From: Fistulifera solaris
Lineage: Eukaryota
Assembly (NCBI GenBank): GCA_030295235.1
Contig: AP026138.1
Location: 744,001-808,000 of the forward strand
Reading direction: 5' to 3'
Length of the DNA stretch: 64,000 bases
A program made the position numbers and the translations under genes. The stretch's first letter is position 1. Every line of letters begins with the position of its first letter. The notes beneath the pieces were generated by a model. The model was not told where the DNA came from. It made no database searches and saw nothing but the letters and a program-made list of their open reading frames with translations. Shown here piece by piece: positions 12,401 through 63,011 of this stretch.

Positions 12401-12429
12401 TTCCAGGGCTCGAAAAAATAATGTGCACG

Positions 12430-23989: not shown

Positions 23990-25077
23990 ATTGTGATTCA
24001 TGACGACTACTGTACAATCCAGTCTTGGCTGGCGTAAACCAACACTCCGTTTCATAGTGGAAATTCAAGGTGTGGGATCCTCGGATTTTCGAGGTGAAAA
24101 TAAAAAAAATTCGTAACAAGTAGTTCAGAATGACCAATGTTGCGACTTTATTTGCCCGTAATTATAATTTTAATCGCAGTTGAATGACAATGGAGGGATG
24201 CGAGAGACGCAAAACGGAACCTTTGTTGTTCGGTTCATGACTACTGTACAATCGAGTCTTGGCTGGCGTAAACCAACATTCCTTTGCATAGTGGAAATTC
24301 AAGGTGTGGGATCCTCGGATTTTCGAGGTGAAAATAAAAAAATTCGTAACAAGTAGTTCAGAATCATCATTGTTGCGACTTTATTTACCCGTAATTATAA
24401 TTTTAATCGCAGTTGAATGACAATGGAGGGATGCGAGAGACGCAAAACGGAACCTTTGTTGTTCGGTTCAAGATTCATGACTACTGTACAATCGAGTCTT
24501 GGCTGGCGTAAACCAACATTCCTTTGCATAGTGAAAATTCAAGGTGTGCAATCCTCGGATTTTCGAGGTGAAAATAAAAGAAATTCTTAACAAGTACTTC
24601 AGAATCATCATTGTTGCGACTTTATTTACCCGTAATTATAATTTTAATCGCAGTTGAATGACAATGGAGGGATGCGAGAGACGCAAAACGGATCCCTTTG
24701 GTTGTTCGGTTCATGACTACTGTACAATCGAGTCTTGGCTGGCGTAAACCAACATTCCTTTGCATAGTGAAAATTCAAGGTGTGCAATCCTCGGATTTTC
24801 GAGGTGAAAATAAAAGAAATTCTTAACAAGTACTTCAGAATCATCATTGTTGCGACTTTATTTACCCGTAATTATAATTTTAATCGCAGTTGAATGACAA
24901 TGGAGAGATGCGAGAGACGCAAAACGGATCCCTTTGGTTGTTCGGTTCATGACTACTGTACAATCGAGTCTTGGCTAGCGTAAGCCAACATCACCCCGCG
25001 TCATAATGAAATTTCAAGAAAATTACAGTAACGGTAGACTACCAGTAAGTTAAGGTTACGAAAAAATGGCTTGAAGG
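23990..25077. repeat. Family C element copy 1: four 236-240 bp units plus a partial unit and a conserved 3' flank
   Basis: TCATGAC unit starts at 23998, 24235, 24475, 24711 and 24947. Right flank ACGAAAAAATGGCTTGAAG at 25058. Confidence 0.96.
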
Positions 25078-25320
25078 AAAAGGCTGCGGTACCAGGTACG
25101 TCTGGCTGTCACATGCGGGGCAATCTCTCACCTCTCACCACGTTTTACTGCCAACAAAAAATAAAAGAATAATTCGTAGATGCACCTTTCCTCTTTCCGT
25201 CATCGTCATTATGTTGCTTCCTTTCCGGTGCTGGTTTCATCGGCTTACTCCGCCCTTTCTTGATCCTTGACGTTGTTGATTGCCATAATTAAGCGACAAG
25301 GGCGACACGAACTTAAAAAT

Positions 25321-26583
25321 ATGGCCTCATCAATAATATCAAATGAGGAAGAAAAGAAAGACGACAAACGGCGGTTTGCGCGAGATTGGCTTTCGAAATT
25401 AATGGAGCGACATGGGCATCGCGATACATGGGTGCTCGCGCCGATGGTGGATCAATCGGATTTACCCTTTCGAAAGTTGGTGCGGAAATACGGCTGCACG
25501 TTGTGTTTCACACCGATGATCCACGCCAAGATGCTGCTGACCCACGCCGTTTATCGACGCAAGTTTTTGATCCGCGATGACCCCACCGATCGCCCTCTCA
25601 TTGCACAACTTTGTGGCAATGATGCAGAGACTTTGATTGCTGCTGCTCGTCTGATAGAGCCTTATTGTGATGCCATCGATTTGAATTGCGGGTGTCCTCA
25701 GATGATTGCTCGACGTGGAAACTACGGGGCTTTTTTGTTGGAATCGCCCGACGCTTTGGTTGAAACAGTCAAACAATTGGTAAAAGGTGTCAATGTTCCT
25801 GTTTGTGTTAAAGTACGGCTCGTGCCGACCTCCGACTCTTTGTGTGAAACACCTCAGACTGATTGGGATGCATCGATTGATCTGTATCGACGCTTGGTTC
25901 GTGAGGCAGGTATCGCCATGTTGACTGTGCATGGAAGGACACGACATCATAAGGGCCCTACGATCGGCAAAGCCGATTGGGATGCAGTTCGTCGTGTGGT
26001 GGAAGAACTGGGCTCCGAAATACCCATTTTATCCAATGGAAGCATAGACAGTTTAGAACAGGCGCTTGAATGTCGACAGGTAACGGGTGTGGACGGAATC
26101 ATGTCGTCGGAGGCCATTTTAGAGTACCCAGCGTTATTTGCAGGAGGAGAAAGAATAAGTCGCGTCCAACTGGCGTACGAGTATTTGAAGTTGGCGAAGG
26201 AATATCCACCAGAACTAGGAGGACAAGGAAGCGGAACCAAGTGTATGAGGGCCCATATTCATCGCTTTCTAGACGGTGATTTTGAAGGAAATAACCATTT
26301 TCGCCAAGCTCTTATTGCTGCAAAAGGTAGGGAGGACCTATGGGATATTGTCGATCAAGTCGCGGCAATTCAGAAAGAAAATGGGCACGATGTTGCGAGT
26401 GAGAAGCTCTCGTGGTACATGAGATATCGGAATGGTCATGCCGATGGCCTGTCCGACAGACACAAGGCCGAACGATTAGGTAGTACCAAATCTCGATCAC
26501 AGGATTCCGACGACGAAGTGGAAGACGTCGAAGGATGTGCACAATGCGTTTTCGACACAAACAACAACGATGGCGACTATTAA
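25321..26583 (+). CDS. DUS1: tRNA-dihydrouridine synthase 1-like
   Basis: LAPMVDQSDLPFR, DRPLIAQLCGND, DLNCGCPQ.IARRGNYGAFL, LTVHGRTR, NGSI, GIMSSEAIL. Confidence 0.93.
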   Translation: MASSIISNEEEKKDDKRRFARDWLSKLMERHGHRDTWVLAPMVDQSDLPFRKLVRKYGCTLCFTPMIHAKMLLTHAVYRRKFLIRDDPTDRPLIAQLCGNDAETLIAAARLIEPYCDAIDLNCGCPQMIARRGNYGAFLLESPDALVETVKQLVKGVNVPVCVKVRLVPTSDSLCETPQTDWDASIDLYRRLVREAGIAMLTVHGRTRHHKGPTIGKADWDAVRRVVEELGSEIPILSNGSIDSLEQALECRQVTGVDGIMSSEAILEYPALFAGGERISRVQLAYEYLKLAKEYPPELGGQGSGTKCMRAHIHRFLDGDFEGNNHFRQALIAAKGREDLWDIVDQVAAIQKENGHDVASEKLSWYMRYRNGHADGLSDRHKAERLGSTKSRSQDSDDEVEDVEGCAQCVFDTNNNDGDY

Positions 26584-26909
26584 TCAAAGACAGTAATTCA
26601 GAGTAGTAGCGAATCTTTAGAGATGAACTAAACATTCCAAAACAATGCAATAATCTATGAAAGCGCTACGAACCTTGGGCTACAACGTTGTCTAATGGCG
26701 AATAAAGATGCGCCATTGTAGCTACATTAACGGATTCCGATAATGAGGAGGACGTCGAGGAGTGGCTTTACTTTTCTGTAGCAAACGATGACGATTAATC
26801 ATTATCGACGAAGCAAGTAGCAACATTTTAAAAATATTAGAAAGGGAACGAAATGTTGTAACAGACAGGTTAAACCAAAGTATAAAATCTATGAACTACA
26901 AGCTTCTTG

Positions 26910-28141
26910 CTATACCGGTAGCAAATCATTGACACACTTTGGTAGTTCCAGGGACTGATTGTGTTTGATTTCCTGCATGAATGGCCGTTTCAAATCACAG
27001 AATTGCCGTTCGCGGTCCAGTCGATGTGGCATTGTGTAACCCATGACGCGATCAAAGTCTTCAAAAATAGGATCGACGGGGAATGGCCATGTGTAAATGG
27101 GGCCGATACCGAAAACCTAAAAAAGAAAGAGAATTTAATTAGTTGGGACGTTCAAAGTCGGGATGAAATAGGAGATGGGCGTATCTAACAACACGTACAT
27201 CAATGAGCTGGATTGGCTCCTCGTCGGATTGATTCATCGTATTCGTAGCTTTCTTTTTCAGCCTATCAATTGTCCCAATCCCCGTCATAATTCCGTAGCA
27301 GACATTCATCAGCATGCTGCTTGTAAATAGAAAAGCGCCGATAGCCAGTAATGTCATTAAACGGACCAAGTGAATAATAATCGGATGGAATGTGCAATCG
27401 TCGTCCGCGCAAAAGAAATAATTCCATCCGAATAAGGAAAGCGCATACGCTGACGAGCTCCATGTGTATATCAGAAAGAGAATAAAATGTTTCAAGTTCG
27501 CTGCTCCGACGCAGTTGTTCATCCACGGGCAGTGATGATCCATGTGACTGATGCAGCGGTTGCAGATGCGGCAGTGGTGACTTCCGGGTGGTTTGAATGT
27601 CTGACACTGCCCACACATGGAGTGCGAATCTCGTAACAAGCGTTGTTTCTCGCACGGAATTGCTTGAACAGGAACAGAACCAGGGTCGGTTAAGCTTGTT
27701 TTGGCGTGCGAAGCCAGCGCGAGAAAGCACAAAATGTTGTATATCATACCCAACACTACGGGTATGCCTTCCGTGACGGTCAATGCGGTGACCGTAAATG
27801 CTGAGTATAACATTAAAACCCAGACCATCGTTGACATAATAGATCCTGCTTGATCGGATGAGTTGCACCAAGTTCCGTTCTTTGAAAAGAATGAGTAAAA
27901 GAGTCAACATCAACACAATGAACCCCGATGAAATTGGACGTACCGTTTCATGTGTGCCGAAAGTGAAGCTCCAGGGCTGCTCATTGTAGCTATCAACGTA
28001 ATATTCGCCTCTCTCTCTAATTCGGGGGTATTCTTGAGGCGGTTTGTTTGAATCATCGTAATTATAATCATACTCCAGCAATTCGTCTTTCACCGAATAG
28101 CAGAACGGGTGATACGGCTGATGACGACTGCGCACCGTCAT
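26910..28141 (-). CDS. DHHC palmitoyltransferase, two introns (~27880-27943 and ~27117-27198)
   Basis: Cys-rich CQTFKPPGSHHCRICNRCISHMDHHCPWMNNCVG, DPG motif and four TM segments. The last exon reads VFGIGPIYTWPFP...LLPV*. Confidence 0.92.
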
Positions 28142-28492
28142 GATAAATCAAAATTGAGAACAACTCGACAACGAATTAATAGCTTCTACAAGCGTCGAAC
28201 TCTTTGAATGATATTGTTGAATATTGACAACATACAATGACAATGAAAAGGCAACACGCAACAACGAGAGGAGCAAGCAACGAGGATCATTGAATTCATT
28301 ATGATGTGACAAAAGGCAACTGTGCGATCCGGCAGAGTGAACCGAATATACATATAAGACGCTGAATATTTCAGATATAATAAGTAGTCGTTGACGCGCG
28401 CCGGCCGCACTTGGGTTCAAAATTTCTGGTTGCAACTGTAACGCTAACCCTTGTGCTCCAAATCAATATAGATTATACAGTAGTCTACTTCT

Positions 28493-28515
28493 CCACGACT
28501 GGAATTCAGTCATGA
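28493..28515 (-). repeat. Solo copy of the C/D/MITE terminal motif
   Basis: The reverse complement reads TCATGACTGAATTCCAGTCGTGG, one mismatch over the first 22 nt to the motif at 62732. Confidence 0.7.
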
Positions 28516-28643
28516 GCGCAGAATTTTAACGTCCTTTCCGTACGTTAATCTTCGCTACAAAGCCAATCTTCTAAACCTACAGTAAAGTCCACGTATATCA
28601 ATACTTTAGTTTTACAAGAAACACTATTCGCAAGGCTTGCACA

Positions 28644-30146
28644 TTAGCTAATATGATGGACGGAACCCTCTGAAGGTACATCGTCCTCTTTCTCGCGATC
28701 ATCCGCACAGTTACCTATTTTCGATTCTATTCTACCTTGCGATACGTCCGAATCATCCTGTTGGCTTTCATCCTTGGTAACAACAGTTTTTGTTGTGTTG
28801 AACGAAACTATCGATTTTGCTTTATCCGACAATTTGCTCGTCAATCGCATTGCTGACGCTTGTAAGAGCTCTTTTCGTTCAGATAAGGTTTCAAAAAACT
28901 GGTTGAGTTTGCTGCTCTTGTTATCCCGCCACCAAATAGTCAGGTCACTTCTGATGTTTTTGCTGTACTTCCACCATCGAGGACCAAATGTACTATATTG
29001 TTGTTTAAAGTCCATAAAAGCCGCATCATACTTTTCTTCCAGTCGATGATCCATATTCAAAACGTTCATACGAAAGGTAACCGTGATGAAAGCGAACCCT
29101 GCAAACATGATCCCTGTTTGTAGCAGCTTTGTTAACATTTGCGTGTTCTTGCCTGCCCCGACGGCTTCCAAGCCGGCAGCTAGTGTCCCTAGCCAGAAAA
29201 TCCATTCGCCGGCGTAGTTGGGATGCGTACAATGACTCCATAGTCCTTCCCGACACCATCGGTAGCGATTTACTGGTGAAGACGCCTTGAAGGCACTCTT
29301 CTGCCAGTCAGCCACAGACTCGAGTGCAAGACCGGTTATCTGAAGAAAGATGCCGATCCAAGAAATAGCACCCCTTGATTGTTGAGTTGATTGTATCGAA
29401 AACCAGCAAGGTGATGCGACACAAAAGTATGCCAATGAATAGAACATCCAACACAGTAACTTAACCATTGTGTCAGGAGATTGCTGGTCATTGACTTGAG
29501 ACAATTTTTTATGTAGCGCTGGCCAGTTTATATATGCACGCCAAAGTAAGAAAGATACCATTCGTAAGGACCAACTCACCACCAAGATGGAGTGGAGAGC
29601 TGTCGTTAAATCAAGAGATTTCGTATTGAAAATCAATGACAATGCAACAGGAATCCCTATCCCTGTGCCATATCCCACGGTGATAAAGTATAAGAAAGTA
29701 TCAAAGCCTACCGATGTCCCCAACATAGTGAGAATATAAATGGACAACAAGGAGAGTCCTGATCGATCGGGTCGAAGCAAAACAGCTAAAGCACCGGAAA
29801 GTACAGAAGGTGCGTACGTGGCGGAGTCTTTGACGAGCTTTTTGCTCGATAAAACAGCCTCCTTGATACGGCCATTCGCCAAGCGGTTAGGTAAAGAGTC
29901 GTAATAACGGTTGAGTGTGTTTCTAGTACGTGATGTACCTAGAAAGGTTGTTGGTGTTTCTTGTCTATCCTCTTCTCGATCTCCACCGCCGGATAAGCGA
30001 ATTGTCATGCTGAGTGTCTCTGATGAAATCATTGACGACGTTTCATGACGTCTTGGATGGGAAGTGGCGTCAGTAGAGGTGCATAGAATTGCCAGCACGC
30101 AGAAGCAAAGTGACTTCAATTTTCTCGATCTCTCGACAAGCCTCAT
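28644..30146 (-). CDS. DUF1295 / steroid 5-alpha-reductase-like membrane protein
   Basis: YFITVGYG, WSLRMVSFL, ESVADWQKSAFK, GLWSHCTHPNYAGEWIFW. Signal-peptide-like N-terminus. Confidence 0.85.
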   Translation of the reverse strand: MRLVERSRKLKSLCFCVLAILCTSTDATSHPRRHETSSMISSETLSMTIRLSGGGDREEDRQETPTTFLGTSRTRNTLNRYYDSLPNRLANGRIKEAVLSSKKLVKDSATYAPSVLSGALAVLLRPDRSGLSLLSIYILTMLGTSVGFDTFLYFITVGYGTGIGIPVALSLIFNTKSLDLTTALHSILVVSWSLRMVSFLLWRAYINWPALHKKLSQVNDQQSPDTMVKLLCWMFYSLAYFCVASPCWFSIQSTQQSRGAISWIGIFLQITGLALESVADWQKSAFKASSPVNRYRWCREGLWSHCTHPNYAGEWIFWLGTLAAGLEAVGAGKNTQMLTKLLQTGIMFAGFAFITVTFRMNVLNMDHRLEEKYDAAFMDFKQQYSTFGPRWWKYSKNIRSDLTIWWRDNKSSKLNQFFETLSERKELLQASAMRLTSKLSDKAKSIVSFNTTKTVVTKDESQQDDSDVSQGRIESKIGNCADDREKEDDVPSEGSVHHIS

Positions 30147-30340
30147 TTGTTAGAAGGTCTTTTTCCTTATTTAGCGAGATAGGAGGGTCGTTTGATACAT
30201 TATTGTGTTATGTCTGTAATCCGATTGAATGAATAACCGTCGACGACTTGTGGCTTTTACGTTTCAAGCGCGTGTGTCGGATGTGAAGGAATGAATAGTC
30301 AAGAATCAAGCAAAGGAAAAATACGGAGTAAAGGACCACG

Positions 30341-31427
30341 ATTGTGTTTCATGACTACTGTACAATCGAGTCTTGGCTGGCGTAAACCAACACTCCGTTT
30401 CATAGTGGAAATTCAAGGTGTCGATCCTCGGATTTTCGACGTGAAAAATAAAAGAAACTCTCAACGAGTAGTTCCGAATCATCATTCTTGTGACTTTTTA
30501 TACCCGTGATTATAATTCTATTCGCAGTTGAATGACAATGGACGGATGCGAGAGGCGCAAAACGGAACCCTTTGTTGTTCGGTTCAAGACTCATGACTAC
30601 TGTACAATCGAGTCTTGGCTGGCGTAAACCGACACTCCGTTTCATAGTGGAAATTCAAGGTGTCGATCCTCGGATTTTCGACGTGAAAAATAAAAGAAAC
30701 TCTCAACGAGTAGTTCCGAGTATCATCATTGTTGCGACTTTTTATACCCGTGATTATAACTCTATTCGCAGTTGAATGACAATGGACGGATGCGAGAGAC
30801 GCAAAACGGAACCCTTTGTTGTTCGGTTCAAGACTCATGACTACTGTACAATCGAGGAGTCTTGGCTGGCGTAAACCGACACTCCGTTTCATAGTGGAAA
30901 TTCAAGGTGTCGATCCTCGGATTTTCGACGTGAAAAATAAAAGAAACTCTCAACGAGTAGTTCCGAATATCATCATTGTTGCGACTTTTTATACCCGTGA
31001 TTATAATTCTATTCGCAGTTGAATGACAATGGACGGATGCGAGAGACGCAAAACGGAACCCTTTGTTGTTCGGTTCAAGATTCATGACTACTATACAATC
31101 GAGGAGTCTTGGCTGGCGTAAACCGACACTCCGTTTCATAGTGGAAATTCAAGGTGTCGATCCTCAGATTTTCGACGTGAAAAATAAAAGAAACTCTCAA
31201 CGAGTAGTTCCGAATATCATCATTTTTGTGACTTTTTATACCCGTGATTATAACTCTATTCGTAGTTGAATTGAATGACAATGGACGGATGCGAGAGACG
31301 CAAAACGGAACCCTTTGTTGTTCGGTTCATGACTCATGACTACTGTACAATCGAGTCTTGGCTGGCGTAAACCAATACTCCGTTTCATAGCGGAAATTCA
31401 TGGATTCACGAAAAAATGGCTAGAAGC
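30341..31427. repeat. Family C element copy 2: four 242-252 bp units plus a partial unit and a conserved 3' flank
   Basis: TCATGAC unit starts at 30349, 30591, 30835, 31082 and 31334. Right flank ACGAAAAAATGGCTAGAAG at 31408. Confidence 0.96.
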
Positions 31428-31564
31428 TAGAGAATGTACTATATACAGTCCTTTTCTCTCGAACAACTTATACTGGTATCTGGTATTGCCTCTAGGTCTA
31501 GAACAAAGGTCCGTGCAATCTACACCTATAAACGTAAAATAAAGTTTTTACGACCTGTTTATCT

Positions 31565-35264: not shown

Positions 35265-35459
35265 TCGTCCAGAAGTTCGGGCCCACAACAACGTGGAACA
35301 CCTGGTCCAGATTTTCTGCCGAATCCAGAATTTCTCGAACCTACAATCAACGCATGTACGAGCTATTACAACACAGAACAAATCCAGATTTTGTTCGAGC
35401 TCAGACTTTCGTTGAAGACGCAAAACTACCGATTCCAGATTTTCTGGAATTCAACAGAA
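35265..35459. repeat. Degenerate family B palindromic subunits
   Basis: TCCAGATTTTCTG at ~35306, TCCAGAATTTCTCGAA at ~35324 and ACCGATTCCAGATTTCTGGAATTCAACAGAAT at ~35428 resemble 15461-15490 and 15715-15737. Confidence 0.6.
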
Positions 35460-36765
35460 TGCAAATGCTTTTCTACATTTCAATGAAAATTCAATTAGGC
35501 TTACGACGCTAAAAAAGAAGGACGAAATTCGTGCAAATGGGCTTTCGTGTAAACCTTAGACTTTAGAATGATGTTCATGACTGAAATGATGCTGTCGTGG
35601 TTCCCGTAAACCAACACTTTGGCCTACAGTACAAAATGCGAGAAGCGAACCGCAAGCATCTAGAATGAGTGAATGCGAACTCTGCATTGCAAATGCTTTT
35701 CTTCATTTTAATGAAAATTGAATGAGGCTTACGACGCTAAAAAGAAGGACGAAATTCGTGCAAATGGGCTTTCGTGTAGACTTTAGAATGATGTTCATGA
35801 CTGAAATGATGCTGTCGTGGTTCCCGTAAACCCACACTTTGACCTACAGTAAAGAATGCGAGAAGCGAACCGCAAGCATCTAGAACGAGTGAATACGAAC
35901 TCTGCATTGCAAATGCTCTTCTACATTTTAATGAAAATTCAATGAGGCTTACGACGCTAAAAAGAAGGACGAAATTCGTGCAAATGGGCTTTCGTGTAGA
36001 CTTTAGAATGATGTTCATGACTGAAATGATGCTGTCGTGGTTCCCGTAAAGCAACACTTTGGCCTACAGTACAAAATGCGAGAAGCGAACCGCAAGCATC
36101 TAGAACGAGTGAATACGAACTCTGCATTGCAAATGCTTTTCTACATTTTAATGAAATTTCAATGAGGCTTACGACGCTAAAAAGAAGGACGAAATTCGTG
36201 CAAATGGGCTTTCGTGTAGACTTTAGAATGATGTTCATGACTGAAATGATGCTGTCGTGGTTCCCGTAAACCAACACTTTGGCCTACAGTACAAAATGCG
36301 AGAAGCGAACCGCAAGCATCTAGAACGAGTGAATACGAACTCTGCATTGCAAATGCTTTTCTACATTTTAATTAAATTTCAATGAGGCTTACGACGCTAA
36401 AAGAAGGACGAAATTCGTGCAAATGGGCTTTCGTGTAGACTTTAGATTGATGTTCATGACTGAAATGATGCTGTCGTGGTTCCCGTAAAGCAACACTTTG
36501 GCCTACAGTACAAAATGCGAGAAGCGAACCGCAAGCATCTAGAATGAGTGAATACGAACTCTGCATTGCAAATGCTTTTCTTCATTTTAATGAAAATTGA
36601 ATGAGGCTTACGACGCTAAAAAGAAGGACGAAATTCGTGCAAATGGGCTTTCGTGTAGACTTTAGAATGATGTTCATGACTGAAATGATGCTGTCGTGGT
36701 TCCCGTAAACCAACACTTTGGCCTACAGTACAAAATGCGAGAAGCGAACCGCAAGCATCTAGAAC
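35460..36765. repeat. Family D tandem array, 220-bp unit, ~6 copies
   Basis: TCATGACTGAAATGATGCTGTCGTGG starts at 35575, 35795, 36015, 36235, 36454 and 36674. Confidence 0.97.
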
Positions 36766-36946
36766 CAGAAATTCTGGATTGGGTGTATTTTGTCCTTTGT
36801 CCGTCACAATGATGTAGTCTAACCTTACCTGGTAGGTACACGCACGGCACCGCCAAGCAACATAACCAACGAGAACAACGTTGCCGATGAATCATTCCCA
36901 ATATTTCACATTCCATCGAACAATCGCAATAAATTCTTTGCATAAT

Positions 36947-38110: not shown

Positions 38111-38645
38111 TGACTTTCATCGGAGCGTTGCTGATTTTAATTTCAGTAAGTTAGACTATTTCGCATGCTGTTTGCATTGTTTAGATTGGAGAAAAAAAGG
38201 AAAACTAGATTGTCGAATCATCATCTAGGAATTAGAAATTCACTTAACTTGTCCGCTTTTTCTTAGGTTCCGAGTTATGCAGCTTTCTTGAGGCATTGGA
38301 GGGAGATAGGTCTATTTTATATCGTTAGAAGTGTAAGAAAGGGGTCATTTTATTCTATTTGCGAATAGTCTTCGAGTCTTGCTTTTGTGGCAATATAGAA
38401 TAAGCTGTACCATTACTGGGGGGAGGCACTATGATGTTGAGAAGATCCGAAAAGCCAAAATGGAGGTGAAAGGACATTTCGACCTCATCGTCGTCCGTTT
38501 AACACCTTTTTATGATTGCAACGCATTATCGAAGTGTTTTATTGCAGTGATCATCTTCCTCTCTTCTTCTTTCTTCATCAGTTCTTCTCTATTCATCTAC
38601 AATAATTTACTCGTTCGATAACTATATGTCACATTCAACTGCACG

Positions 38646-41600
38646 ATGTTTGGGATGAAGTTACTCGGCAGTACGGGAAAACGCACAAAAAGCGGTAGCG
38701 CATCCGTCGGAGGAGAAGTTGTCAAAAAGCAAGAAACGGAGGTGTATATTCGACCCGATGGCAAGAAAGTTCGACGCGTTAAAACGACAATTGTACGGAC
38801 GAAGTCGTCGGATAGCAATTCGGGTGATATCGCGCAAATGCGCAGCAGTTTAGCCAATACACTCGATTCCGGAAATTCCGTCAAACCCAAAGTCAATGCC
38901 TCCGCCACCGTTCACGGATCCACTCCCGCTTCTCGCGGTATCAAAGTAGCGCAATCTTTTACCGAAGGCGAAGTTTATATTCGTGCGGACGGAAAGAAAG
39001 TGAGACGAGTCAAGAAAATTGTTGACCCTAAATCAGTAAACGATCTCATCCCACCGGAAGCCGATAAGAAAGCATCTTTATCGGCTTCCCTTTCCAATAT
39101 GTTGAATTCTCCGGCTTCGCCCAGCGGCACAAAGAAAAGTGGTGCAGCGACGATAGGAGGAGCCCGAGTCCCAGAGGGTGAGATATACATTCGTCCCGAT
39201 GGAAAGAAAGTACGGAGAATTATTAAGAAGGTTGTGCCGGCGGACGAGGCAAACTCTGCCAAAGCATCCTTGACGGCGAAACTAGGAACTCCTACAAAGA
39301 GTGGAGCAGCAACCGTAAGTGGAGTACCGAGACCAGTGGAAGGTGAAATTTATATCAACAAAGATGGCAAAAAGTACGTCGCGTCCCAAAGAAATCGACC
39401 GCTTCTGTCGCGCCTGCCGGAGATAGCTTGGCGGCGAAACTGGGGTCCAGCATCAAAGCCGCTCCTTCCAAATCGGGCAGTGCCAGTGTGGGTGCGGTTC
39501 CGAATCGAAAAATTCCGTCGCGTGCCATTTCCTATTCCGAAGGAGAAGTTTACATCCGCGCGGACGGTAAAAAGGTTCGCCGTGTCAAGAAAAATCCGGC
39601 GTTGGGTGTTCATGCTTTGTCGCTGGCCGAAAAGGACCAAGCATTGTCCAATATGTTGGAAAATCCATCCGCTACTCCCGTCAAGGCGGGTAGTGCGTCG
39701 GTGGCCGGAGGACAAGTCGTGATCAAACAGCAAGTGGGGGAAATTTACATCAACGCCGACGGAAAGAAAGTCCGCCGCGTACGAAAGATTGTGACCAAAC
39801 CAAAGGATGGAGCTGCCACGCTTGCGGGACATATGGATGGAACGGCGAAAGTGGCCGGTCCCAGTGGTGCTGCGACGGTGGCCGGGAAGCCGCAAGAAGG
39901 AGAGATTTACATTCGAGCGGACGGCAAGAAAGTGCGGCGCGTCAAAAGAAGAGTGAACCGAAAACAACGACAAAGACCATTGCTATTGCCAAGCCCAAAG
40001 CGAAGGATGATACTTCATTGTCGTCGAATACCTCGCTGAACAAATTTAGCAAAAAGAAATCATCCGATGGTGCTTCCGTGACATCAACGACGTCGTTGAA
40101 TAAGTTCAAAAGAAGAAATCGTCGGATGGTGCTTCCGTCACATCGAAGACATCCGTCACTAAAGTCAAGAAGAAGAAATCCTCTGACGACGCTTCGGCTG
40201 TTTTGAAACCCAATGTACAAGGGAAAGCCACCAAGGAGGATGACGATGGATTCATTACGTTAACAATTGCGAAGCCCGATTCGAGTTCATCTGCGGAAGT
40301 CACCGGGGCTGCGGAGTCAGTCGATGGATCAATGTTACTTGACAGCTACCTAGGCAAGCTCAAGAAGTCAAAGAAGAAAGCGTCTGGTAGTGCCACAGTG
40401 ACCGGTGCAATCGAGAAAACGACAAAGACATCCAAGAAGAAGGCAGGCGTTCTTGCCGTTGGAGACGATGAATCGGTTGTCGCACCAACAATAGAAGAAC
40501 TCAAGACTGGGAAGAAGGCGAAAGACGACACTGCGCAGGATAAGCCTACAGAAAATGGCAGTGCTCTGGATGGATTTCTTGATAAAAGAGAGTTTCACGG
40601 AAAGGTAAAAGCGGGGCTGCGTCTGTTTCTGGAGACCAAGTTGCTAGTAAAAAGGGCCCCGCGATAGATCTGAGGGAAGAATTCAGAAAGCTAAGAGAGC
40701 TGCGAGAAAAGGCTCAGGCCGCTTCCAAAGCAGCCGAGGCTGTAGAAATGTCCGAGGATGACAAAGGAATAGCTAGCAAGTATGTAAAGATGAAGCAGAT
40801 GGGACTGCCTGACGACGCCTTGAAACATAAAATGGTTCAAGACGGAGTCACTGAAGGTATCATTTGTGGCGTGCTTGGATCAGTGAAAGCAGAGGTATCC
40901 GACATTGGAAGTCGACGCGCGGAAGAATCGGAAGAACCACTATCTAGTCCAGAACATCTAAAGCAGCTTGACAACGCGGAACAAGCTATTGCCTCAAAGT
41001 ACGAGAGAATGAAGAAAATGGGGCTCCCCGTTGATGCACTTCGGCATAAAATGACGCAAGACGACGTTTCTCCGAAGATCATTGCTGCTGTTATGGGTGA
41101 CGAAATCAAAAGGCAAACGATCCGCAGACAGCGCAAGAATCAAATCAATTGGCTACTTTGTCTGAGGACGAAGAGGGAATTGCGGACTATTACCGTGGCA
41201 TGGGACTGTCCGACGACGCCCTTCGCCAAAAAAATGACCCAGGATGAAATAGACTCCAAAATTATTGCCGCGGTCATCGGAGACGAAGCGAAACATGTAG
41301 CAGAATCGTCTACTACTTCGCCGCTCTCTGCAGAAGAGGAAGTGATCACGAACAGCTACAGTAAAGTGCAGCAAATGGGATTGCCTGACGATGCAGTTCG
41401 ACACAAAGTGGCGCAAGATGGCGTCACACCAAAGCTTGTTCCTACTACTATGGGTAAAGAATGCAGTGAACCTACGCCCCTACTCTCAGAAAAGCGCGAT
41501 GAGTCTAAGGACGCTGTTCAGGAACAGTCGTCTCAGGATGAAGTCGACACAGCAGTTGCAGCTGCACCCGCTTTGAGTCTATCAGCAAGCGTTGAAGAGC

Positions 41601-44596
41601 AACCTCAAATTAGCAGCAATCCTCTTTCAACCACTGGTGCAGCCTTATCGAACGATGAAGAAGCCATTGCTGAAACTTACCGTAAGATGAAGAAAATGGG
41701 CCTACCTGAAATTGCAATTCGACACAAAATGGGCCAAGACGGAGTAAATGATAGAGTGATCGCTGCAGTATTTCAAGAATCGATGCCCGAGCCTGCATCT
41801 GTTACTCCCGTCCCTGATTCTAATAAAACCGACGGAACCACACCAACGTCTGATGAGGAAGCAGTCGCTGACAATTATCGCAAAATGACGAAGATGGGTT
41901 TACCAGAAGAAGCCGTCAGACACAAGATGGATCAAGATGGTGTCAGTGACAAAGTTATTGCTTTGGTTTTCGGTGAATCAACTTCTAATCCAGGTGGGCC
42001 AGCGATTGGTCCTGTGTCGACAACATCCAACTCTAGTCTAAGCGAAGAAGAAGAGGCATTAGTCAGCCAGTATGCGAAGATGAAGAAGATGGACATGCCA
42101 GAGGAAGCCATCCGTCATAAAATGATGCAGGACGGCGTTGACTCGAAAATCGTGTCAACCGTCTTCGACGAACAGCCGACCGAGAAGCTAGTAGATACTT
42201 CGAAGCGTTATGCGTTGAGCGTTGATGGGCCAAAGGAAGAACACATTCTAAACGAAACGTTTGAGGTTGCGCTCGACCACGGAGAACGGACGGAGAATGG
42301 TAAAAAGAAGTACGAAACGAAGTTCATGTCATTAGAAGACATCGCACGACTTTCAGGACAGAGCAAAGAAGCTTTAGAGCAGTTAATAAAAGACAAGAGA
42401 AAGAACTCGGAGAAAATCCCCAAGTTTGTTTTGCAGCCTCTTGCAGACGATGAACCGTCGGAAGGTGACATGTTTGAAGTTGAGGTACCCCGTACAAAAC
42501 GAGGTGAAGGAGGGGCCGATTTTACTGCTGCCAATCCAAAGCTGAAAAACGCCGACCCGCAAAAAACTTAGAGAGGTTCAAGATGGTCAGGAAGTTGTGG
42601 GATCTGACTTAGCGAACGCGGCTCGCGCTGTTTCGGCTCTGGGTGAAAAAGATGTGTCTGCGCTACTTGCACAATTGCAACAAGGCGATATGGGTGCATT
42701 ACTGAAGAAAATGCAGAAGTTAGAAAAGCAACTTGCCCAGGCTGGTATTGCAATCGCCGAAGATATCGATTACGACGAAGCCAACAAGAAGGTCGCAGAA
42801 ATAGCCGCCCGCATGGCCGAAATCGGTGGAAGTGACGTCACGCATCCTGATAAAGAAGTCCAAAACCGTCTTAGAGAAGAGTATTTTAAGCTCGAGCAAG
42901 AGATGGAACGCTATAGCACTGCTTTGAAGCTCACTGAGGAGTATCAGGCGGAACAAGAGCGAATGGAACGTCTCTGGGAGGAAGCGAATGATGGACCCAA
43001 CGAAATTGCTCTTCGTAAGATTCGCCGTCACATGCCAGTCAAGATCAGAAACATGAGTGAGGCTGAATTGACGAATACCCCTTCTCCAAATGGAAAGTTT
43101 CTTCCTCAAGCCATGGCTAAGAAGTTTAAGCGCACGAATATCTTGCAGTTGCTCCGTGTAAATCCCGACGACATAGAACGAATGCACCCCGCCTCACTGG
43201 AAGGTATGCGTGTGACAGGACTTACTCTAACAGAGCGGCGAGCAATTTACGCTCATCTCAAACCGTTGGGACCAAAGTGGGAGAAAAACAAAGCGGAAGC
43301 GATGACGAAGAGGAAGCATGAATGGTTTAAGATGCTTAAGTTGAACTTCAAAGAGAATGTTGCGCCATACCAACGGCATGTCGATCAATACGGACCACCC
43401 GAAAACCACGTCGGTTGCCCATTGATAGGAAAACAATGCCCCATCAAAGCAGACAAAGTAATCGATTATGACGGGGATTATGGCTGGACTCCCGAGGCCG
43501 AGTACGAGGTTTCACAAGTGACGAAAGCAGATTCTGACGACCCTGGTGCAAAGGCCATGCAAGAAGCTCGTGAGCTTGCGCGCGAAAAGAAAGCGAACGA
43601 GCGCGCTGATTTGCTCAAGAAGCACTATAAAGGAAAATTATTACAAGTTTCCAAAGCGAGTGGAAGTTGCGAGTCAATGGATGAAACAATGGATAAAATG
43701 GAGTTTGCCATTGGTCGCTGGATTCAATTCATTATTGAAAAGGAAAGGATGAATCCGAAGCGGACAAGAAGAAGGAAGTTGCCAATTTCACCGATACACT
43801 CAACGACATCAAACTGGGTATACTGGACTACTGCAAACGATCGGGTATGCAAACTTCTGGAAAGAAAACTGCCGGCGGTGATGGGCCCGATATCCGAAGT
43901 GCTATCGAATGTGGTCTTGCCGTGGAGGTGTACGAGCATGGTCAAGAGTTCTTCAAGTTTATCAAGAACCGACTAACAGAACTTGATGCCAGAGACGCCC
44001 GTGTGGAAAAAACTATTGAACTGTTAGAGACGATGCTTTCTGAATTGAATGAAAAGAACAAGAGCACACTTGCCAGCCTCGGTGTACCATGCCCGGACAA
44101 GTCCAGGAAACTCAAGAAAGCTGCGGAGATTCGAAAAGAGATTGAAGAGAAGATGCAGCCCAGCGAAGAAACACCCGCAGAGGAAGATTCACCAAGTCCC
44201 AGAGGCCCACATGGTGGCGGGGGCCGAGGTGGTTTACTCGGAGAAATAGCTGGCCGAGGAGGTCGCGGTGGCTTTTTGGACTCTATCAAGGGTGGCCGCG
44301 GAAGAGGCGGCGGACGTGGTGATCTTCTTGCAGGCATTGCTGGACGGGGAAGAGGCGGCCGTGGTGCCGGGGGCGATGGGGGCGGCCGAGGAGGCCTCCT
44401 TGCTGCTATTCAAGGCCGAGGTGCAGGTGATGCTGGAGGCAGAGGAGGTCTTCTTGCTGCCATTCAAGGCCGAGGTGCTGGCGATACCGGAGGCCGAGGT
44501 GGTCTTCTTGCTGCAATTCAAGGTCGAGGTGCCCCAGATGCCGGCGGCCGAGGTGGTCTTCTTGCTGCCATTCAGGCTCGCGGAGGCGGAGGTTAA
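38646..44596 (+). CDS. Large (~2000 aa) modular repeat protein, probably cytoskeleton-associated, reconstructed across several frameshifts
   Basis: Consecutive overlapping + strand ORFs (38646-39722, 39428-40039, 40018-40206, 40203-40667, 40748-42571, 42597-43976, 43847-44596), with breaks mostly at A runs. Contains 7x GE(V/I)YIxxDGKKVRRV, 7x YxKMxKMGLPxxAxxHKMxQDGV and C-terminal GRGGLLAAIQ repeats. Confidence 0.75.
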
Positions 44597-52480: not shown

Positions 52481-52609
52481 AGGAATGGGCACTGAGAGCC
52501 GGTGCTACATGCTGAACGACACGAAATAATGACGATGCTAATAATCCAACGATCAACAAAGACAAGGCGCAATAATCTACTGTTAATTTTTATCTGAGTG
52601 AAATAGCAT

Positions 52610-56081: not shown

Positions 56082-56250
56082 ACGAACATGACAGACAAAG
56101 GAACCCCGCCACTTCATGTATATTGCAACCCACCACAGAACTTACTCATAAGAAATCAGCTTCGCGGGAAAATGTCTTGATGTCAGACGAAAAAATTAGT
56201 TTTTAATTTGAAAGATTGTTATTTCTTTACGTTTGAGCTCTCTTTATACC

Positions 56251-57431: not shown

Positions 57432-57869
57432 TGCTGAGTAGCTAAAAAATTCTTTACTTCAAATGATCACGGCAAGGGCTCCGCACGACAGTTTAAAACA
57501 ACGAAACGAGATATTTTCTTTTCCAATTTATACTCAAAGCGAAAGAAAAATGAAACAATACGATTACAGGAGCGATTGTTGCATGGAAATAATACTGCAG
57601 CACGATCGTGTCGAGAACAAAAATAATGTATAGGTCGCAGGTCGCGCAGTCGCATACTAAGCGGAGCCACGGCCAGACCCCCAACACTACTTACTCCGCT
57701 CCAGCTCCACACTCCACAATCCACAGTTCCCCCAAAAGATGATTGTCGATGATGCCTGTAGGGCGGAAAAAGTTTACCGGTGTGATGATTACCCGATGCA
57801 AAGGACAGTCCCTCTTTGACAATCAAGGCCTTCATTTTCGTGCAATCGACTGCAATACAAAAAAAGTAT

Positions 57870-58525
57870 GAAAAAATGCAACGCTTCGAATGTCTACGTA
57901 GTTTTCACGTGTTGCTCTTGCAGGAAATTTATCGACAGAGGGGAGACCCGGATTTTTCCTAATTTCGATCACACCATTATTCGCGTCTTTTGGACAACAA
58001 TGTCAGAAATACTTTGCCCAACATCGCTTATGACACCCATGAAACAATAATCGGAAGTGATTTGATAGTGAAACATGAAACAGTAGAAAGATACGACGCT
58101 TCCAGTGTCTACGCGAGTTTTACGTAGCCGCCGTAGGAAATTTATCTCTGTAGGGGTACCCGGATACTGTGATTTTCGCCATCATCCAATTCTTGGATCT
58201 ACAATGCACAGATGTCAACGTTTCCTTGTCCACCGTATTCGCTTCGTATCAGGGAGCAATAATCGGCTTCGATTTGAAAACAAAACGTTGACGGAACGAA
58301 TGATGCAACGCTTCGAATTTCTACGTAGTTTTCACGTGTAGCTCTCGTAGGGAAATTTATCGACAGAGGGGAGTCCCGGATTTTTTCCTAATTTTTTCCT
58401 AATTTTGATCACACCACTATTCGCTTCTTTTGGACAACAATGTCAGAAATACTTTGCCCAGCATCGCTTATGTGACCTATGAACAATAATAGACTTTGAT
58501 TTGATAGTGAAACATGAAACATTAG
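57870..58525. repeat. Degenerate family A copies (three ~215-bp units, reverse orientation, A-B-A pattern)
   Basis: ...GGAAATTTATC(G/T)(A/C)(C/T)(A/G)(G/T)AGGGG...CCCGGA cores at ~57877, ~58090 and ~58303. The spacer at 57961-58085 recurs at 58401-58524. Confidence 0.85.
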
Positions 58526-58764
58526 AGGTCGCACCGTCGCAGCTTGCGACAAAAAGCAGAGGAATGGCCAGACGCCCCAATCGACACCTCACACAGAATT
58601 TCCATTCGTCTCAAAATAATGCTGTATCGATTTTCTGTTTTTAAAAAAAGCATCGAGTCGTCTCTGTCGACTAGACTAAGGTCACCAGGAATTACTCTTC
58701 ATTTAACATATTTTTAAAGCAAGGCGAATATCTACGAATCAATGTTTTGGAGGATCGGTTAGAG

Positions 58765-58813
58765 CGAACTATCTTCGTAATAGATTAACGAACTATCTTC
58801 GTAATAGATTAAC
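58765..58813. repeat. Perfect 24-bp direct tandem duplication
   Basis: CGAACTATCTTCGTAATAGATTAA x2. Confidence 0.9.
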
Positions 58814-59011
58814 AACATACACACCCTTTCTCTTTATCTATGCACGCTTTCATTGTAAGCTACGTGCGGGATATCAAGCACTATAGTTAGAAGGAACCTA
58901 ATTATCCTCATGGCCGGAATGAATACACACAAACTATAATTTAAACGTCTTTTTCGTAAGCTGAGCGAGGATGTAAGAGCGCTTTAAGCGTGTCCAAACT
59001 CGCTAAAAAGT

Positions 59012-59434
59012 TCAGCAGAGTCCCATAGTCGAAGAATCATCAGAGACTTCCGTCAGGACGGCATCTGGATGATAGTCTTTGTTATCGTCTTCGTCAGAAA
59101 CAACCTCGTCGTCATCCGCAGACTTCTTCTCGCTCTGCTTAGGCTTGGCCGCCTGCTTTGCACGACGGGACCGACGTATTTCCACAACGAATTGGAAGAC
59201 AACCGGAAGTCGTGCTTCTTTCATGCGCGCCAATTTCGTTTTTAGCTTTGCTCGCAACGCTTCCATGGGATCGTACATCCAACAAGCATCATGGCCGTCG
59301 TCCTGCTTCGAAACGGGTTCGTTGCGAGAACGAGATCCGCGGGCCGTACCGGGAGACGAATTGTCGTATTTATCATTCATCACCGTGATGGATTGAGACG
59401 ATAATGAAGAAGAAGAGAAAGCAGCGTGCGTCAT
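59012..59434 (-). CDS. Hypothetical protein
   Basis: 140-aa ATG ORF with no recognisable domain. Confidence 0.4.
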   Translation of the reverse strand: MTHAAFSSSSLSSQSITVMNDKYDNSSPGTARGSRSRNEPVSKQDDGHDACWMYDPMEALRAKLKTKLARMKEARLPVVFQFVVEIRRSRRAKQAAKPKQSEKKSADDDEVVSDEDDNKDYHPDAVLTEVSDDSSTMGLC

Positions 59435-59860
59435 GGCGATTGATCAAAAGATCTGGTCGAAGGATTTGTGCAAAGATCTGCGAATGAATTGTGTCGAAGC
59501 GATCCATGCCGTCTCTCCTTCAACGCGAGAAAGAGCATGTCGGAACTGGTATTGTTTTACGAGAATATCACGAAAAAGGGGTGAAGCTGTGACTTTATTC
59601 TTAGCAACGAGTGCAGAAAGTGTCTTGGCAACTGTGTTTGTTCTTTCGGCATTTTCGGCGTTCCGCACTAGCGAGTGAATCACGAGTGTCGTCGTCGATT
59701 TTGCGAAGTCGTCTCCGTAACTGGTCCATAAACAAACCTGTTCTCCCTGAAATGACTCTAATTGATATAAAAAAGTGCAAAAAGTAAGCAACTAGACTAG
59801 CTCCATTGCAACACTCTCAACGGGCCTGAAAAGAAAAAAAGCAAAACGATTGTACCCGAT

Positions 59861-59951
59861 TTTCCTAGACGGGACTTGAACCCGCAAACCTTCTGATTGG
59901 CTCATACTATCGGAGTAGAAGTCAGACGCGCTGCCATTGCGCCACTAGGAA
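59861..59951 (-). tRNA. tRNA-Arg(UCU) with 18-nt intron (59898-59915)
   Basis: Acceptor TTCCTAG/CTAGGAA, D arm GCGC-AATGGCA-GCGC, anticodon arm TCTGA-CT-TCT-A[intron]A-TCAGA, T arm GCGGG-TTCAAGT-CCCGT. T-rich runs lie downstream on the minus strand. Confidence 0.93.
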
Positions 59952-60112
59952 AGCAATCGACCTTCGGAAGAAATTTAAATAAACAAAGAGATGCTAAAAT
60001 AGAGTCGTACCGTGCCCTCATTTTTTGCTTGCGAAAAAGCGGAAAACGTCGATGACAAAAGATTTCGCCGATACATAAATATAAAAACAATGTCACTTCC
60101 AAATCATGCAAC

Positions 60113-61387
60113 ATGAACACCTTATTCATAGCCTTATGCTATTTCCAGTACTTCTCGTTTGTCACTGCCTTAGCGCCACAGTTTCACACCGCAGACAGAG
60201 AACACTCTCGACGAACGTTCTTTCATGACAGTGCCTTTCGTTTGCTGGTTGGAGCTTCCTCCGCTACATCTCCATTGCCAGCCGTCGCTCAAGAGAATGA
60301 ACTGCCATTGTCGCTACGAGATTTTACGAAACTGGCTCCTTTGGGTTCTTCGCAGACGTCGTCTGTAGAAAACAAAACACGGAACTTGTCGTTGCCAGAG
60401 ATTGCGAAGCGACTTGAGAACGATTTGAGCAATGGGTCTACGGGTCAAGGTGGATATATCATCAGCGGCGATATCAGCGCAGGCCTGTTTCGAGAGGACT
60501 GCATTTTCGTGGACCCAACAAACCGAGTCAAAAGTCTCAATCAATATCAGAATGCTCTCCGTATCTTGTTTGATCCGAAACGATCGACTGTTTCCATCCT
60601 AGACCCATTCACAGTCGACGAAGAGACACGTACTATTCGGGGCCGCTACCGGAGTCGGGGATTTTTGCAATTGCCTTGGAACCCGTATGTATCGTCATAC
60701 GAAGCAACGATCACTTACAAAATTGATCCAGACGGATTGGTGGAAGAACAATGCCAGACATGGTCGAAATCGGCCACGCGCGCGCTTCAGGAGACCTTTA
60801 CTCCCAGTGTATTTCCCGACACACCCACGAGCACTTTAGACAAACCTGCGAATGAACCACAACTGGTGACACAACTGTTCGAGGCGGTGAATGGACGGCG
60901 TTTGGATGATTTCAGTGCCGAGGAACGTTTAGAGATTGACGCCTTGATTCATCAAATTGCACAAGAAAAGTATTCCGTCGATGATTCTGAAAAGCTTCTG
61001 GTAGGCACTTGGCGATTATCGTATTTTCAACCCGGACCCGGTGGTGCTGGTATCGATCGACGCATTCCATTTCCCGACTTTTCGTTCAATCAAAATTTTC
61101 AAACTTTTACCATTGATCATCGTATCATCAATCGCGGCGAACTTTTGGGACCATGGCTTGATGTACGAGTTTTTGGTAACTGGGAAGCAACAACCGGTGG
61201 TAATTCTTTGCAGCGATACAAGGCAGAGATCCATAGTGGTCAATTTTGTCGAGGGCCTAACTTTTGCGCACCGTTACCTATCACGGGTGAGGGCTTGTTT
61301 GATAGTGTGTATCTAGGCGATCGACTACGAATAGGACGAAATATCAATGGCGGAGGTGCTGTGGTAGTTCAAGTTCGATTATCATAA
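60113..61387 (+). CDS. DUF2358 (NTF2-like) + PAP/fibrillin-like fusion, predicted plastid/thylakoid-targeted
   Basis: Signal peptide, then SRRTFF twin-arginine and AVA. FREDCIFVDPT...LQLPWNP (DUF2358-like). LVGTWRLSY...FDSVYLGDRLRIGR (fibrillin-like). Confidence 0.75.
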   Translation: MNTLFIALCYFQYFSFVTALAPQFHTADREHSRRTFFHDSAFRLLVGASSATSPLPAVAQENELPLSLRDFTKLAPLGSSQTSSVENKTRNLSLPEIAKRLENDLSNGSTGQGGYIISGDISAGLFREDCIFVDPTNRVKSLNQYQNALRILFDPKRSTVSILDPFTVDEETRTIRGRYRSRGFLQLPWNPYVSSYEATITYKIDPDGLVEEQCQTWSKSATRALQETFTPSVFPDTPTSTLDKPANEPQLVTQLFEAVNGRRLDDFSAEERLEIDALIHQIAQEKYSVDDSEKLLVGTWRLSYFQPGPGGAGIDRRIPFPDFSFNQNFQTFTIDHRIINRGELLGPWLDVRVFGNWEATTGGNSLQRYKAEIHSGQFCRGPNFCAPLPITGEGLFDSVYLGDRLRIGRNINGGGAVVVQVRLS

Positions 61388-61449
61388 TTTAATTAGGTAA
61401 ATGCATCAACGTTTACGCGAATCAAACGAATCAAACCAACAAACTCTAT

Positions 61450-62353
61450 TTAAAGCCCCTGCTGGCGTCGCGTTTCCATCCAACGTATGTGATCGATACG
61501 AACATCCCCACCGAGTTCCACCGGAACACAACTTTTGTCAATACCGTATTTGCGCAAGGACTTTAACACATCGGCATTGCTACCCGTATGAAAGGCCACA
61601 CGCTTCTTGACACGCTCCGACATGCACAACTTGAGAAGAGGCAAGACGAGAGCCGCAAACGCCGGTGGTTTGCAGACATGGTAAGCCGACAATCGGACGG
61701 GAATCGCTCCTTGCATACAGGGCAGCATGATTTTTGGACAACTTTCGATCAAACTGCGAAAAGGAGGCACGCGACGGATCCCCAATCACAATGACTCCGT
61801 ACTTTTGCGAATTCTCGTTTTCCAAAGCGGCGTGCACGACATACCACGAGGCTCGTGTGAGACTCAAGCGCGTATACTTCGATCGATCTTGCGTCGATGG
61901 GTCACTGAAGAGAATGGAACGACCTTTCGGATCGGTGACTCCCACCAGCAGGCGCAAATAACCAATTTGCAGCGCCGTGCCATCTTCCGACAAGGCTTGG
62001 TCCAATGTCAATGGCTCAAAGGCTTTTTCGTCACCAAAGATCTCGACTCGTTTCTTCCAGTAATTGAGATAACGGGTGACGGCATCGGTGACTCGAAAGA
62101 CTTCCGATCGCAAGAACATGAGTTCAAATTGGGCTGTCAACAATTCGGGACATTTTTCCTTGGCCATGAGATACTCCTGATTCGAGGGAGTCTTCTGAAC
62201 CGTTCGTTCTGCCAATTCTTCGGCAAACTGTGCCAACGTTTTCTGAATGAGATCAGGCGTTTCTTTCGGATGCACTTGACCGTAATGATCCGGTTCGTCA
62301 TCGCTGTCGGAAGAAATGGTGCAAGTAGAAGAAAGAGATAGTAATTTGACCAT
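61450..62353 (-). CDS. CRAL-TRIO (Sec14-like) lipid-binding protein, frameshift ~61730
   Basis: MFLRSEVF...YWKKRVEIFG, DPKGRSILF, SQKYGVIVI, GAIPVRLSAYH, VPVELGG. Confidence 0.85.
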
Positions 62354-62731
62354 GATGGAAGGTGGACAGTTTGTTTTCGTGATGAAGTTGTGGTTGTGAT
62401 GGCAATATCAATTAAAAAGGGTCATGTGTCGTGTGTTTTGAGCTTTGTGCCGACGACCGAGATTTTTCTCGCCCAACATAAACATTTGTGATGCTGATGC
62501 GTGGCTGCGTGGCGCATTGATGCGATGATGAGAAAGTAGAAAGTGTGAACCAAACGGACATTTTGCTCAACGCATTCTTTGGCCTTTCGAGAACTTTATG
62601 AACCTAGACTATCGCCGCTTGCTATAATTGTTTTGAAAACACTTCAGTCATTATCGGCATTCGTCATTCTCGTCCATGCAGGATTTTGGATTTTTCTCCC
62701 TCCAGGTGGACTATAGTGTCGAAGTGTTAAT

Positions 62732-63011
62732 TCATGACTGAAATCCAGTCGTGAAAAAAGTAACGTACACATTGTGCGAGAGTAAACTTTTACCAAACAT
62801 CCTTCGATGAAAATTATCGACCTTCGACGCAAGCATAAACTTCTTCCGTCCAATCTATTGCTCAGTTGATTGCCTTCAAATCATCGAAACTTTGCCTTCA
62901 GGTTCATCTAAAATAAGAAAGATCAGAGAATTGTCCCTTTTCGTTTCGCCTCTTTTTGCACTATTGTCGAAAGTGTTGTCCGTTTTTACCAAGACTGGAT
63001 TTCAGTCATGA
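62732..63011. mobile_element. 280-bp MITE-like element with perfect 19-bp terminal inverted repeats
   Basis: TCATGACTGAAATCCAGTC at 62732-62750 and its exact reverse complement at 62993-63011. The interior is AT-rich and non-coding. Confidence 0.7.

Follow-up and report, generated by a model that had tools for sequence, protein, structure and literature searches.

The non-autonomous Helentrons of the HINE/DINE-1 type carry a 15-bp palindrome 4 bases in from their 5' start, a short palindrome near the 3' end, a T-rich 3' flank and internal tandem repeats, possess no coding capacity and have been described without visible target duplication, and the HINEs of mites possess palindromic subterminal inverted repeats (PMC4067079). 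Equally, the Helitron2 elements FoHeli1 and FoHeli2 of Fusarium start with TCA, have a hairpin at the very 5' end and hairpins at both ends, and display repeated 5' termini and self-insertion (PMC5148889). Comparable traits are seen in a repeat family of the diatom Fistulifera solaris, encountered in a window of 64,000 nucleotides (GenBank assembly GCA_030295235.1, contig AP026138.1, positions 744,001 to 808,000 of the forward strand), that is C23:744001-808000 in a genome of 51.7 Mb in 62 contigs. Its hallmark is a motif, M, which begins with TCATGA and is, judged by sequence comparison, the best-kept part of one old and common family of non-coding intergenic monomers of 200-250 bp.

M constitutes the ~55-bp head of the monomer: an imperfect hairpin, in which a short loop separates TCATGACTG from CAGTCGTG, is followed by a variable spacer of 12 bp and then by the ACACTT..ATAGT box. 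A 15-bp imperfect palindrome starts at base 5, 4 bases in from the TCATGA start as in the mite HINEs; for HINE/Helitron2 elements, such a subterminal and often palindromic inverted repeat is expected 2-4 bases from the 5' end. That the box might be a second palindrome was considered and dropped, the perfect 8-mer being merely the fourth commonest box form (17 copies). A strict 22-base pattern of M has 513 exact matches genome-wide and its reversed control 0. A profile of M matched 30 times in the 200 kb of C23 scanned beyond the window and 29 times in 266 kb of contig C24, which is collinear with C23 at ~84-92% identity across long blocks and was therefore used as its homoeologue; reversed and shuffled control sequences gave one weak match in total. 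Extrapolated from this 0.9% of the genome, roughly 6,000 copies of M would be present, and none of the scored matches in 530 kb lies within a coding block. The two scanned stretches are the only unselected DNA, the loci behind the monomer, array-end, pair, 7-mer and flank statistics having been chosen by motif or by similarity to the subfamilies C and D, which are therefore over-represented. A first-pass annotation of the window had proposed a genome-wide search with subsequent sorting of the copies; M turned out far commoner than the window suggests, and the sorting distributes 296 copies over 131 non-redundant, C- and D-enriched clusters, 58 of them solo and 73 with 2-8 copies. Neighbouring copies on the same strand are spaced 200-259 bp apart in 156 of 165 cases. 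The central proposal of that annotation, a short, dispersed, non-coding and apparently mobile family with a sharp TCATGA edge and head-to-tail arrays, is upheld, as is its statement that no autonomous partner resides within the window.

No published description of the M family was found by title or abstract in a partial literature survey, and Rfam at gathering threshold gave no match on the repeats. Scans of viral contigs with the M pattern yielded 0 and 0 matches; five matches in a metagenome, all hairpins without the box and one of them in a bacterial-type open reading frame, were taken as chance. The sole Rfam match in the window is an unrelated tRNA gene at 59861-59951 on the minus strand (RF00005, 54.9 bits), which spans 91 bases against the 71 positions of the model and possibly contains an intron. 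Coverage by a sequencing run guessed to be RNA (X1) is similar over genes and intergenic gaps.

The monomer bodies group into subfamilies C (60 units), E (30) and D (25), plus many singletons, and the loop of the M hairpin differs in length between subfamilies. According to the first-pass annotation, C and D were unrelated beyond ~60 bp and their arrays filled with different cargo. In pairwise comparison, mean C-D body scores indeed equal the shuffled level, the bodies having diverged to the detection limit, and past the first 62 bases a score as high was attained by 29 of 2000 dinucleotide shuffles, a marginal likeness. However, a monomer profile built from 52 E and singleton units, with C and D excluded, gives D bodies a clear score, with a median of 7.8 bits where shuffles have a 99th percentile of 1.0 and a maximum of 5.3. 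For C bodies the score is weak, the median of 2.45 bits comparing with a 99th percentile of 0.8 and a maximum of 4.5 in shuffles, and their likeness lies mostly within the first ~35 bases. A full-unit profile aligns to the D units of the window over positions 1-152 to 1-193 and to the C units over ~100-127 positions, with 0 matches on the reversed window. D is thus, and C less firmly, a diverged descendant of one common monomer of which the head is best kept, and a difference in cargo is not supported.

Within the window, M is found in the four versions that had been recognized there, namely two C arrays, a D array, a solo copy and an inverted pair (62732-63011), accompanied by fragments of the larger element to which the C arrays belong:

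23886-23997, plus strand: leader fragment of the C element, common to other C loci; the left end of a terminal inverted repeat (TIR) element that opens the leader elsewhere is absent here
23998-25015, plus strand: C1 array, 4 monomers of 236-240 bp and a terminal motif
25053-25076 (limits approximate), plus strand: tail fragment of the C element after C1, common to C2 and other C loci
28460-28515, minus strand: solo M with eroded box, also present at the homoeologous site
30349-31400, plus strand: C2 array, 4 monomers of 242-252 bp and a terminal motif
31401-31423, plus strand: tail fragment of the C element after C2, matching the tail at other C loci
35460-36765, plus strand: D array, 5.9 monomers of 219-220 bp, both ends mid-monomer and not at M
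62595-62754, minus strand: weak eroded unit (15.9 bits), read in the opposite direction from the hairpin of the left motif
62732-62790, plus strand: left M of the inverted pair, at whose TCATGA the likeness to the homoeologue begins
62954-63011, minus strand: right M of the inverted pair, ~310 bp upstream of the PCNA gene

The genes of the window are compact (PCNA, Dus, ATP synthase alpha/beta family, cupin), and C1 sits between the ATP synthase alpha/beta-family gene and the Dus gene. Its units are 93-99.6% alike, while C2 possesses an extra 7-mer at every internal junction. The location of the solo copy had been given correctly, but it extends well beyond the 23 bp first assigned to it, and its homoeologue has one additional ~229-bp unit in front. 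Just outside the solo copy, window positions 28518-28540 match DNA at locus L093, where a small insertion with inverted repeats splits a C unit beyond the final C motif; the match is to an arm of this insertion. For the first 62 bases, in an alignment frame chosen after the motif had been seen, the likeness between versions was reached by 0 of 2000 dinucleotide shuffles for C-D, C-right, D-right, D-left, left-right, left-solo and right-solo, where left and right denote the ends of the inverted pair, by 2 of 2000 for C-solo and by 1 of 2000 for D-solo. Only between C and the left end is the likeness not significant (136 of 2000).

The inverted pair of 280 bp had been considered MITE-like (miniature inverted-repeat transposable element), with M as its TIR and TCATGA either as the TIR tip or as a duplicated target site. 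The 19-bp perfect inverted ends speak for this interpretation, as does an excess of convergent over divergent M pairs, six of the former (89-309 bp in length, one being the homoeologue of the window pair) having been found against three of the latter. The variation in length itself, however, does not fit, and the interior is confined to a single locus: in a search in which 40 of 81 candidates were scored, it was matched among 47 matches by the homoeologue alone (77%). None of the six convergent pairs has a target duplication longer than 2 bases, the window pair has none at all, and neighbouring copies are direct in 165 cases and inverted in 9. The pair is occupied in both homoeologues and, as far as testable, is single-copy with no insertion polymorphism seen, an outcome that the first-pass annotation had itself named as speaking against its proposal. 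The 280-bp piece is thus, by all appearances, two old M copies facing each other and not a MITE family, an alternative we consider hardly tenable.

The edge of M at TCATGA is sharp. Of 99 first copies, 28 had flanks derived from a unit and were set aside; in the other 71, M follows a pyrimidine in 64 cases (T in 34, C in 30), A in 5 and G in 2. In 60 of 251 copies, M is preceded by a repeat of its own first 7 bases, and among all 7-mers duplicated side by side in 530 kb only one is commoner. Short runs of the M 7-mer that lack M, as at window positions 8812-8830 and at the homoeologous site L032, may be scars of the same process. At the opposite side, 13 copies of subfamily E end in an identical CAGA..TCTG hairpin located ~22 bases past the last box (further in some), with ~70-75 bases from the last palindrome to the end of the terminal hairpin; the DNA beyond is unrelated between copies and T-rich (T in 65 of 144 bases in 12 tails). 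Seven of these 13 copies start at base 1 of M, their 5' end being deduced from loss of similarity and not from empty sites, and no target duplication was seen around the E copies starting at M. This fixed 3' hairpin end of subfamily E is a new observation. The tails of C and D differ from it and are ragged; C arrays end past the last hexamer, after a further whole motif, in a tail common to loci.

We tentatively interpret the M family, at a little under an even chance, as non-autonomous rolling-circle elements (HUH-type, HINE/Helitron2-like), because the terminal anatomy of E, the sharp edge with its 7-mer stutters, the tandem layout, the one-sided capture of foreign DNA described below, the lack of target duplication where checked and G-T pairs on one strand of the hairpin all point in this direction. 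As to the last, T-G is the prevailing combination at hairpin pairs 1:23 (40 of 65 distinct hairpins) and 4:20 (31 of 65), a pairing possible on one strand only; since the copies are related, the count lends weak support. From these features we infer the enzyme class, the position of the nick, the direction of copying and circular intermediates. M would be the cis-acting head, of which a nuclease supplied in trans would recognize the imperfect hairpin and the box and nick at the TCATGA edge; copying would then pass one or more monomers up to the terminal hairpin or a chance stop, and the product would insert without target duplication. Head-to-tail arrays could arise from the re-use of M in each monomer, from self-insertion and from later local duplication, and read-through would carry along adjacent sequence, the TIR-element end next to C arrays being an example. 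Once inserted, copies would decay. Helitron1 elements begin with TC after an A and end in a hairpin and CTRR before a T. Membership there was rejected: M does begin with TC, yet only 5 of 71 flanks have an A in front of it, and the E tail does not end in CTRR.

The 7-mer duplications would fit staggered cutting, as expected if the monomers were miniature non-autonomous Cryptons, with a tyrosine recombinase excising circles of ~220 bp and re-integrating them at the palindrome edge via a crossover of 6-7 bp (TCATGA[C]). Cryptons possess direct terminal repeats of 4-6 bp and, as CryptonS, occur in a diatom, although most CryptonS have TATGG termini, unlike M (PMC3212892). However, the arrays run past the hexamer to a further whole motif and a common tail, E ends in an unrelated hairpin, and the loop varies in length by subfamily, unlike the fixed spacer of a recombinase. 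A genome search for Phage_integrase (PF00589) gave 0 matches, which, the search being insensitive, says little. We regard this origin as decidedly unlikely. Replitrons resemble the M family in their short direct terminal repeats and, for Replitron-1, in a fuzzy right end, and were not detected in diatoms in the study describing them (PMC10288648); insensitive profile searches of the genome found no Replitron or Crypton enzyme linked to M.

The combination of a sharp edge, bearing differing numbers of 7-mers, with a ragged edge could, on the other hand, be read on the opposite strand as the signature of a retroposon similar to a short interspersed element, of which the 3' stem-loop and the 7-mer tail are recognized by the reverse transcriptase of a long interspersed element and the ragged ends represent 5' truncations. 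Reverse transcriptase genes are present (RVT_1, 26 matches), but M lies within 1.5 kb of only 1 of the 26 loci, and there upstream of the gene, the flanks being too short to include all 3' ends. The lack of target duplication around the E copies and of Rfam matches on the repeats likewise argues against such an origin, which we hold to be very unlikely.

The leader of C arrays at several loci opens with the left end of an unrelated TIR element. Complete copies of this element are non-coding, ~850 bp long, with TIRs of ~30 bp and TTAA on both sides. Its copies are located as follows:

L124:394-1264; C5:804341-805156; C13:905804-906663; C17:538981-539841: TIR element copies, three complete pairs by pattern, two of them read

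Its TTAA flanks and 5'-RR termini, seen in the two complete copies read, are reminiscent of Kolobok transposons (PMC9587614), but a TA duplication would fit the flanks equally, no transposase was seen and the C arrays carry the left end only. The 14 matches of the TIR pattern comprise three pairs (6 matches), one lone right end with no M nearby and seven lone left ends, all of which lead into a C array on the same strand: four directly, one at a further locus, one with a copia insertion in between and one at a distance of 1.7 kb. This link of lone left ends to C arrays is a new observation. The copia-type long terminal repeat retrotransposon is broken, extends over ~C23:662656-669451 (L171-L172) with an identical 89-bp stretch at both ends, and is absent from the homoeologue; considered as a partner of M, it was rejected as a later insertion splitting a C leader.

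These junctions speak for the main rival, which would see in M the conserved protein-binding or recombination box of a passive satellite, amplified by unequal exchange or re-insertion of circles and carried inside TIR (DDE) transposons such as the TTAA-flanked Kolobok-like element. All seven lone left ends precede a same-strand C array while their upstream flanks are unrelated (mostly A/T-rich), arrays are locally homogeneous (96% within C1, 97.5% within C2, 91% between the two) and often ragged at both ends, and conserved boxes at the junctions of divergent satellites are known (PMC3694981). Yet a right TIR was sought in vain in the 0.6-1.2 kb downstream of 21 C arrays, neither of the two complete TIR elements read contains an M array, and most C loci as well as the D and E loci read are without such a TIR. 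Furthermore, the pyrimidine rule and the 7-mer duplications at the M edge would be left unexplained. We judge a passive satellite rather unlikely.

Several observations weigh against the rolling-circle interpretation. A cut-and-paste vehicle would also explain the seven C arrays that follow a precisely ended TIR left end. Among the C loci analysed, to which the census of C is limited, TCATGA or its vicinity is the starting point of only ~6 of 18 C rows, one row being a duplicate; the supposition that all arrays start exactly there was dropped. The remaining C rows and most D arrays, that of the window included, are ragged at both ends. HINE boxes flank the central repeats, whereas the M box lies inside every monomer. 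The TT target of Helentrons does not appear at the M edge, with T 34 and C 30 of 71 at position -1, for which reason the M family is not filed as a HINE/Helitron2 member, and the FoHeli target TNAT is present at 12 of 71 5' flanks. Genome searches with Helitron_like_N (PF14214), PIF1 (PF05970), DUF6570 (PF20209) and Replitron_HUH (PF21859) gave 0 matches, although they were exon-wise and insensitive, three being without a working positive control (Replitron_HUH among them) and the host Pif1 being missed too; with no partner enzyme from five family searches, Phage_integrase included, HINE/Helitron2 membership is no more than putative. No circle was observed. The comparison of filled and empty alleles proposed at the outset defined no target site duplication: homoeologous gaps are patchworks of other repeats with no clean breakpoint or empty site, so element boundaries and target are provisional. 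Equally, among the contig joints listed, none of the contigs from four sequencing runs skips an array.

Comparison of the homoeologues bears on the age of the family and on the role of M. Many M copies, the inverted pair among them, occupy the same place in both, and the family therefore predates their split. On the other hand, C1, C2 and D have no counterpart at the homoeologous sites on C24, and 264 kb of one subgenome contain five C or D arrays where the matching 266 kb of the other contain none; of 186 C matches, the 150 listed fall on 15 contigs, C24 not among them. In a wetland metagenome (run X2), C arrays reach a depth of 590-1650 against 0.5-33 for most other non-array bins, and its contigs cross C1 and D at their right ends. 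The arrays are hence no artefacts of assembly, and no empty allele was seen.

Shared positions in both homoeologues, one pair upstream of PCNA and the exclusion of scored matches from coding blocks could also indicate a host control element, such as a promoter, origin or chromatin site, under selection at each locus. The hairpin is in fact slightly better kept than its surroundings, at 86-87% identity between orthologous copies on C23 and C24 versus 78-82% of aligned bases in the flanks (16 and 18 rows in overlapping sets, picked on flank alignment), but this small excess is about what selecting on the motif would produce. M shows no fixed distance or orientation to genes, with 16 same and 11 opposite orientations in tandem gaps, and is present in 4 of 65 convergent gaps, both counts resting on rough gene models; whole arrays are absent from the homoeologue. 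Three dispersed centromere/autonomously replicating sequence consensus motifs have been reported (bioRxiv 10.1101/2021.11.10.468027); a 17-base core of one of them has 1 match in the window, against 0.52 expected, and it does not fall on an M copy. A host element is consequently highly doubtful. As subfamilies retain M despite diverged bodies and orthologs lose it nearly as fast as their flanks, constraint on M looks to be exerted at the level of the element and not of the locus, which favours the rolling-circle interpretation.

Further repeats in the window show a comparable organization. A second tandem family of ~216 bp at 1831-4007 has a short conserved core dispersed on both strands, with short copies at 1419-1466, 11994-12050, 57897-57964 and 58335-58384, and the core also occurs beside M arrays (L104, L117-L121, L202) in a layout like that of the M family. 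A third, with a period of ~206 bp on a short palindrome, is found at 12422-13234, 15207-15736, around 35300-35459 and at 36766-36780, so that its pieces border the D array on both sides. Positions 38622-44596 hold a long A-rich repetitive coding region that is broken up among several reading frames; such shifts, common throughout the window, may stem from indels in the assembly. A more far-reaching and unlikely extension of the rolling-circle interpretation would make M a self-contained origin of ~55 bp and each 200-250-bp monomer a miniature rolling-circle 'mobile satellite', driven by an undescribed non-RepHel diatom nuclease and picking up ends of other transposons, with the other palindromic families of ~210 bp as possible parallel systems.

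If the rolling-circle interpretation is true, HINE-like repeats number in the thousands in a compact diatom genome in which no Helitron is detectable, and they are a main source of intergenic difference between the two subgenomes; were M passive satellite cargo, the result would be a useful repeat annotation and little more. M offers a concrete substrate with which to look for the enzyme and to test the ways in which short satellites spread.

Among known systems, HINE/DINE-1 Helentrons resemble the M family in the features outlined at the beginning, but in them the last palindrome lies 38-60 bases from the end, followed by a short stem-loop, versus ~70-75 in E, whereas the M family repeats its module in each monomer, departs from the TT target and is accompanied by no Helentron found in the genome (PMC4067079). 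FoHeli1/2 differ in their target and in their RepHel, of which none was found here, and the piece repeated in the M family is 7 bases or a whole monomer (PMC5148889). The Helitron-associated satellites of the Pacific oyster equally occur scattered over the genome, as single monomers or in short arrays, and may have element ends on both sides, on one or on neither; their boxes, however, lie outside the central repeats and their link to Helitrons is established (PMC8268682). The Meloidogyne satellites with Box 1 likewise keep a short motif at monomer junctions while the bodies diverge almost beyond recognition, but Box 1 is a 17-bp, CENP-B-box-like motif, whereas M measures ~55 bp, has a hairpin and is dispersed between genes (PMC3694981). 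Measured against these systems, the M family is abundant and undescribed in the literature surveyed, but of a broadly known kind.

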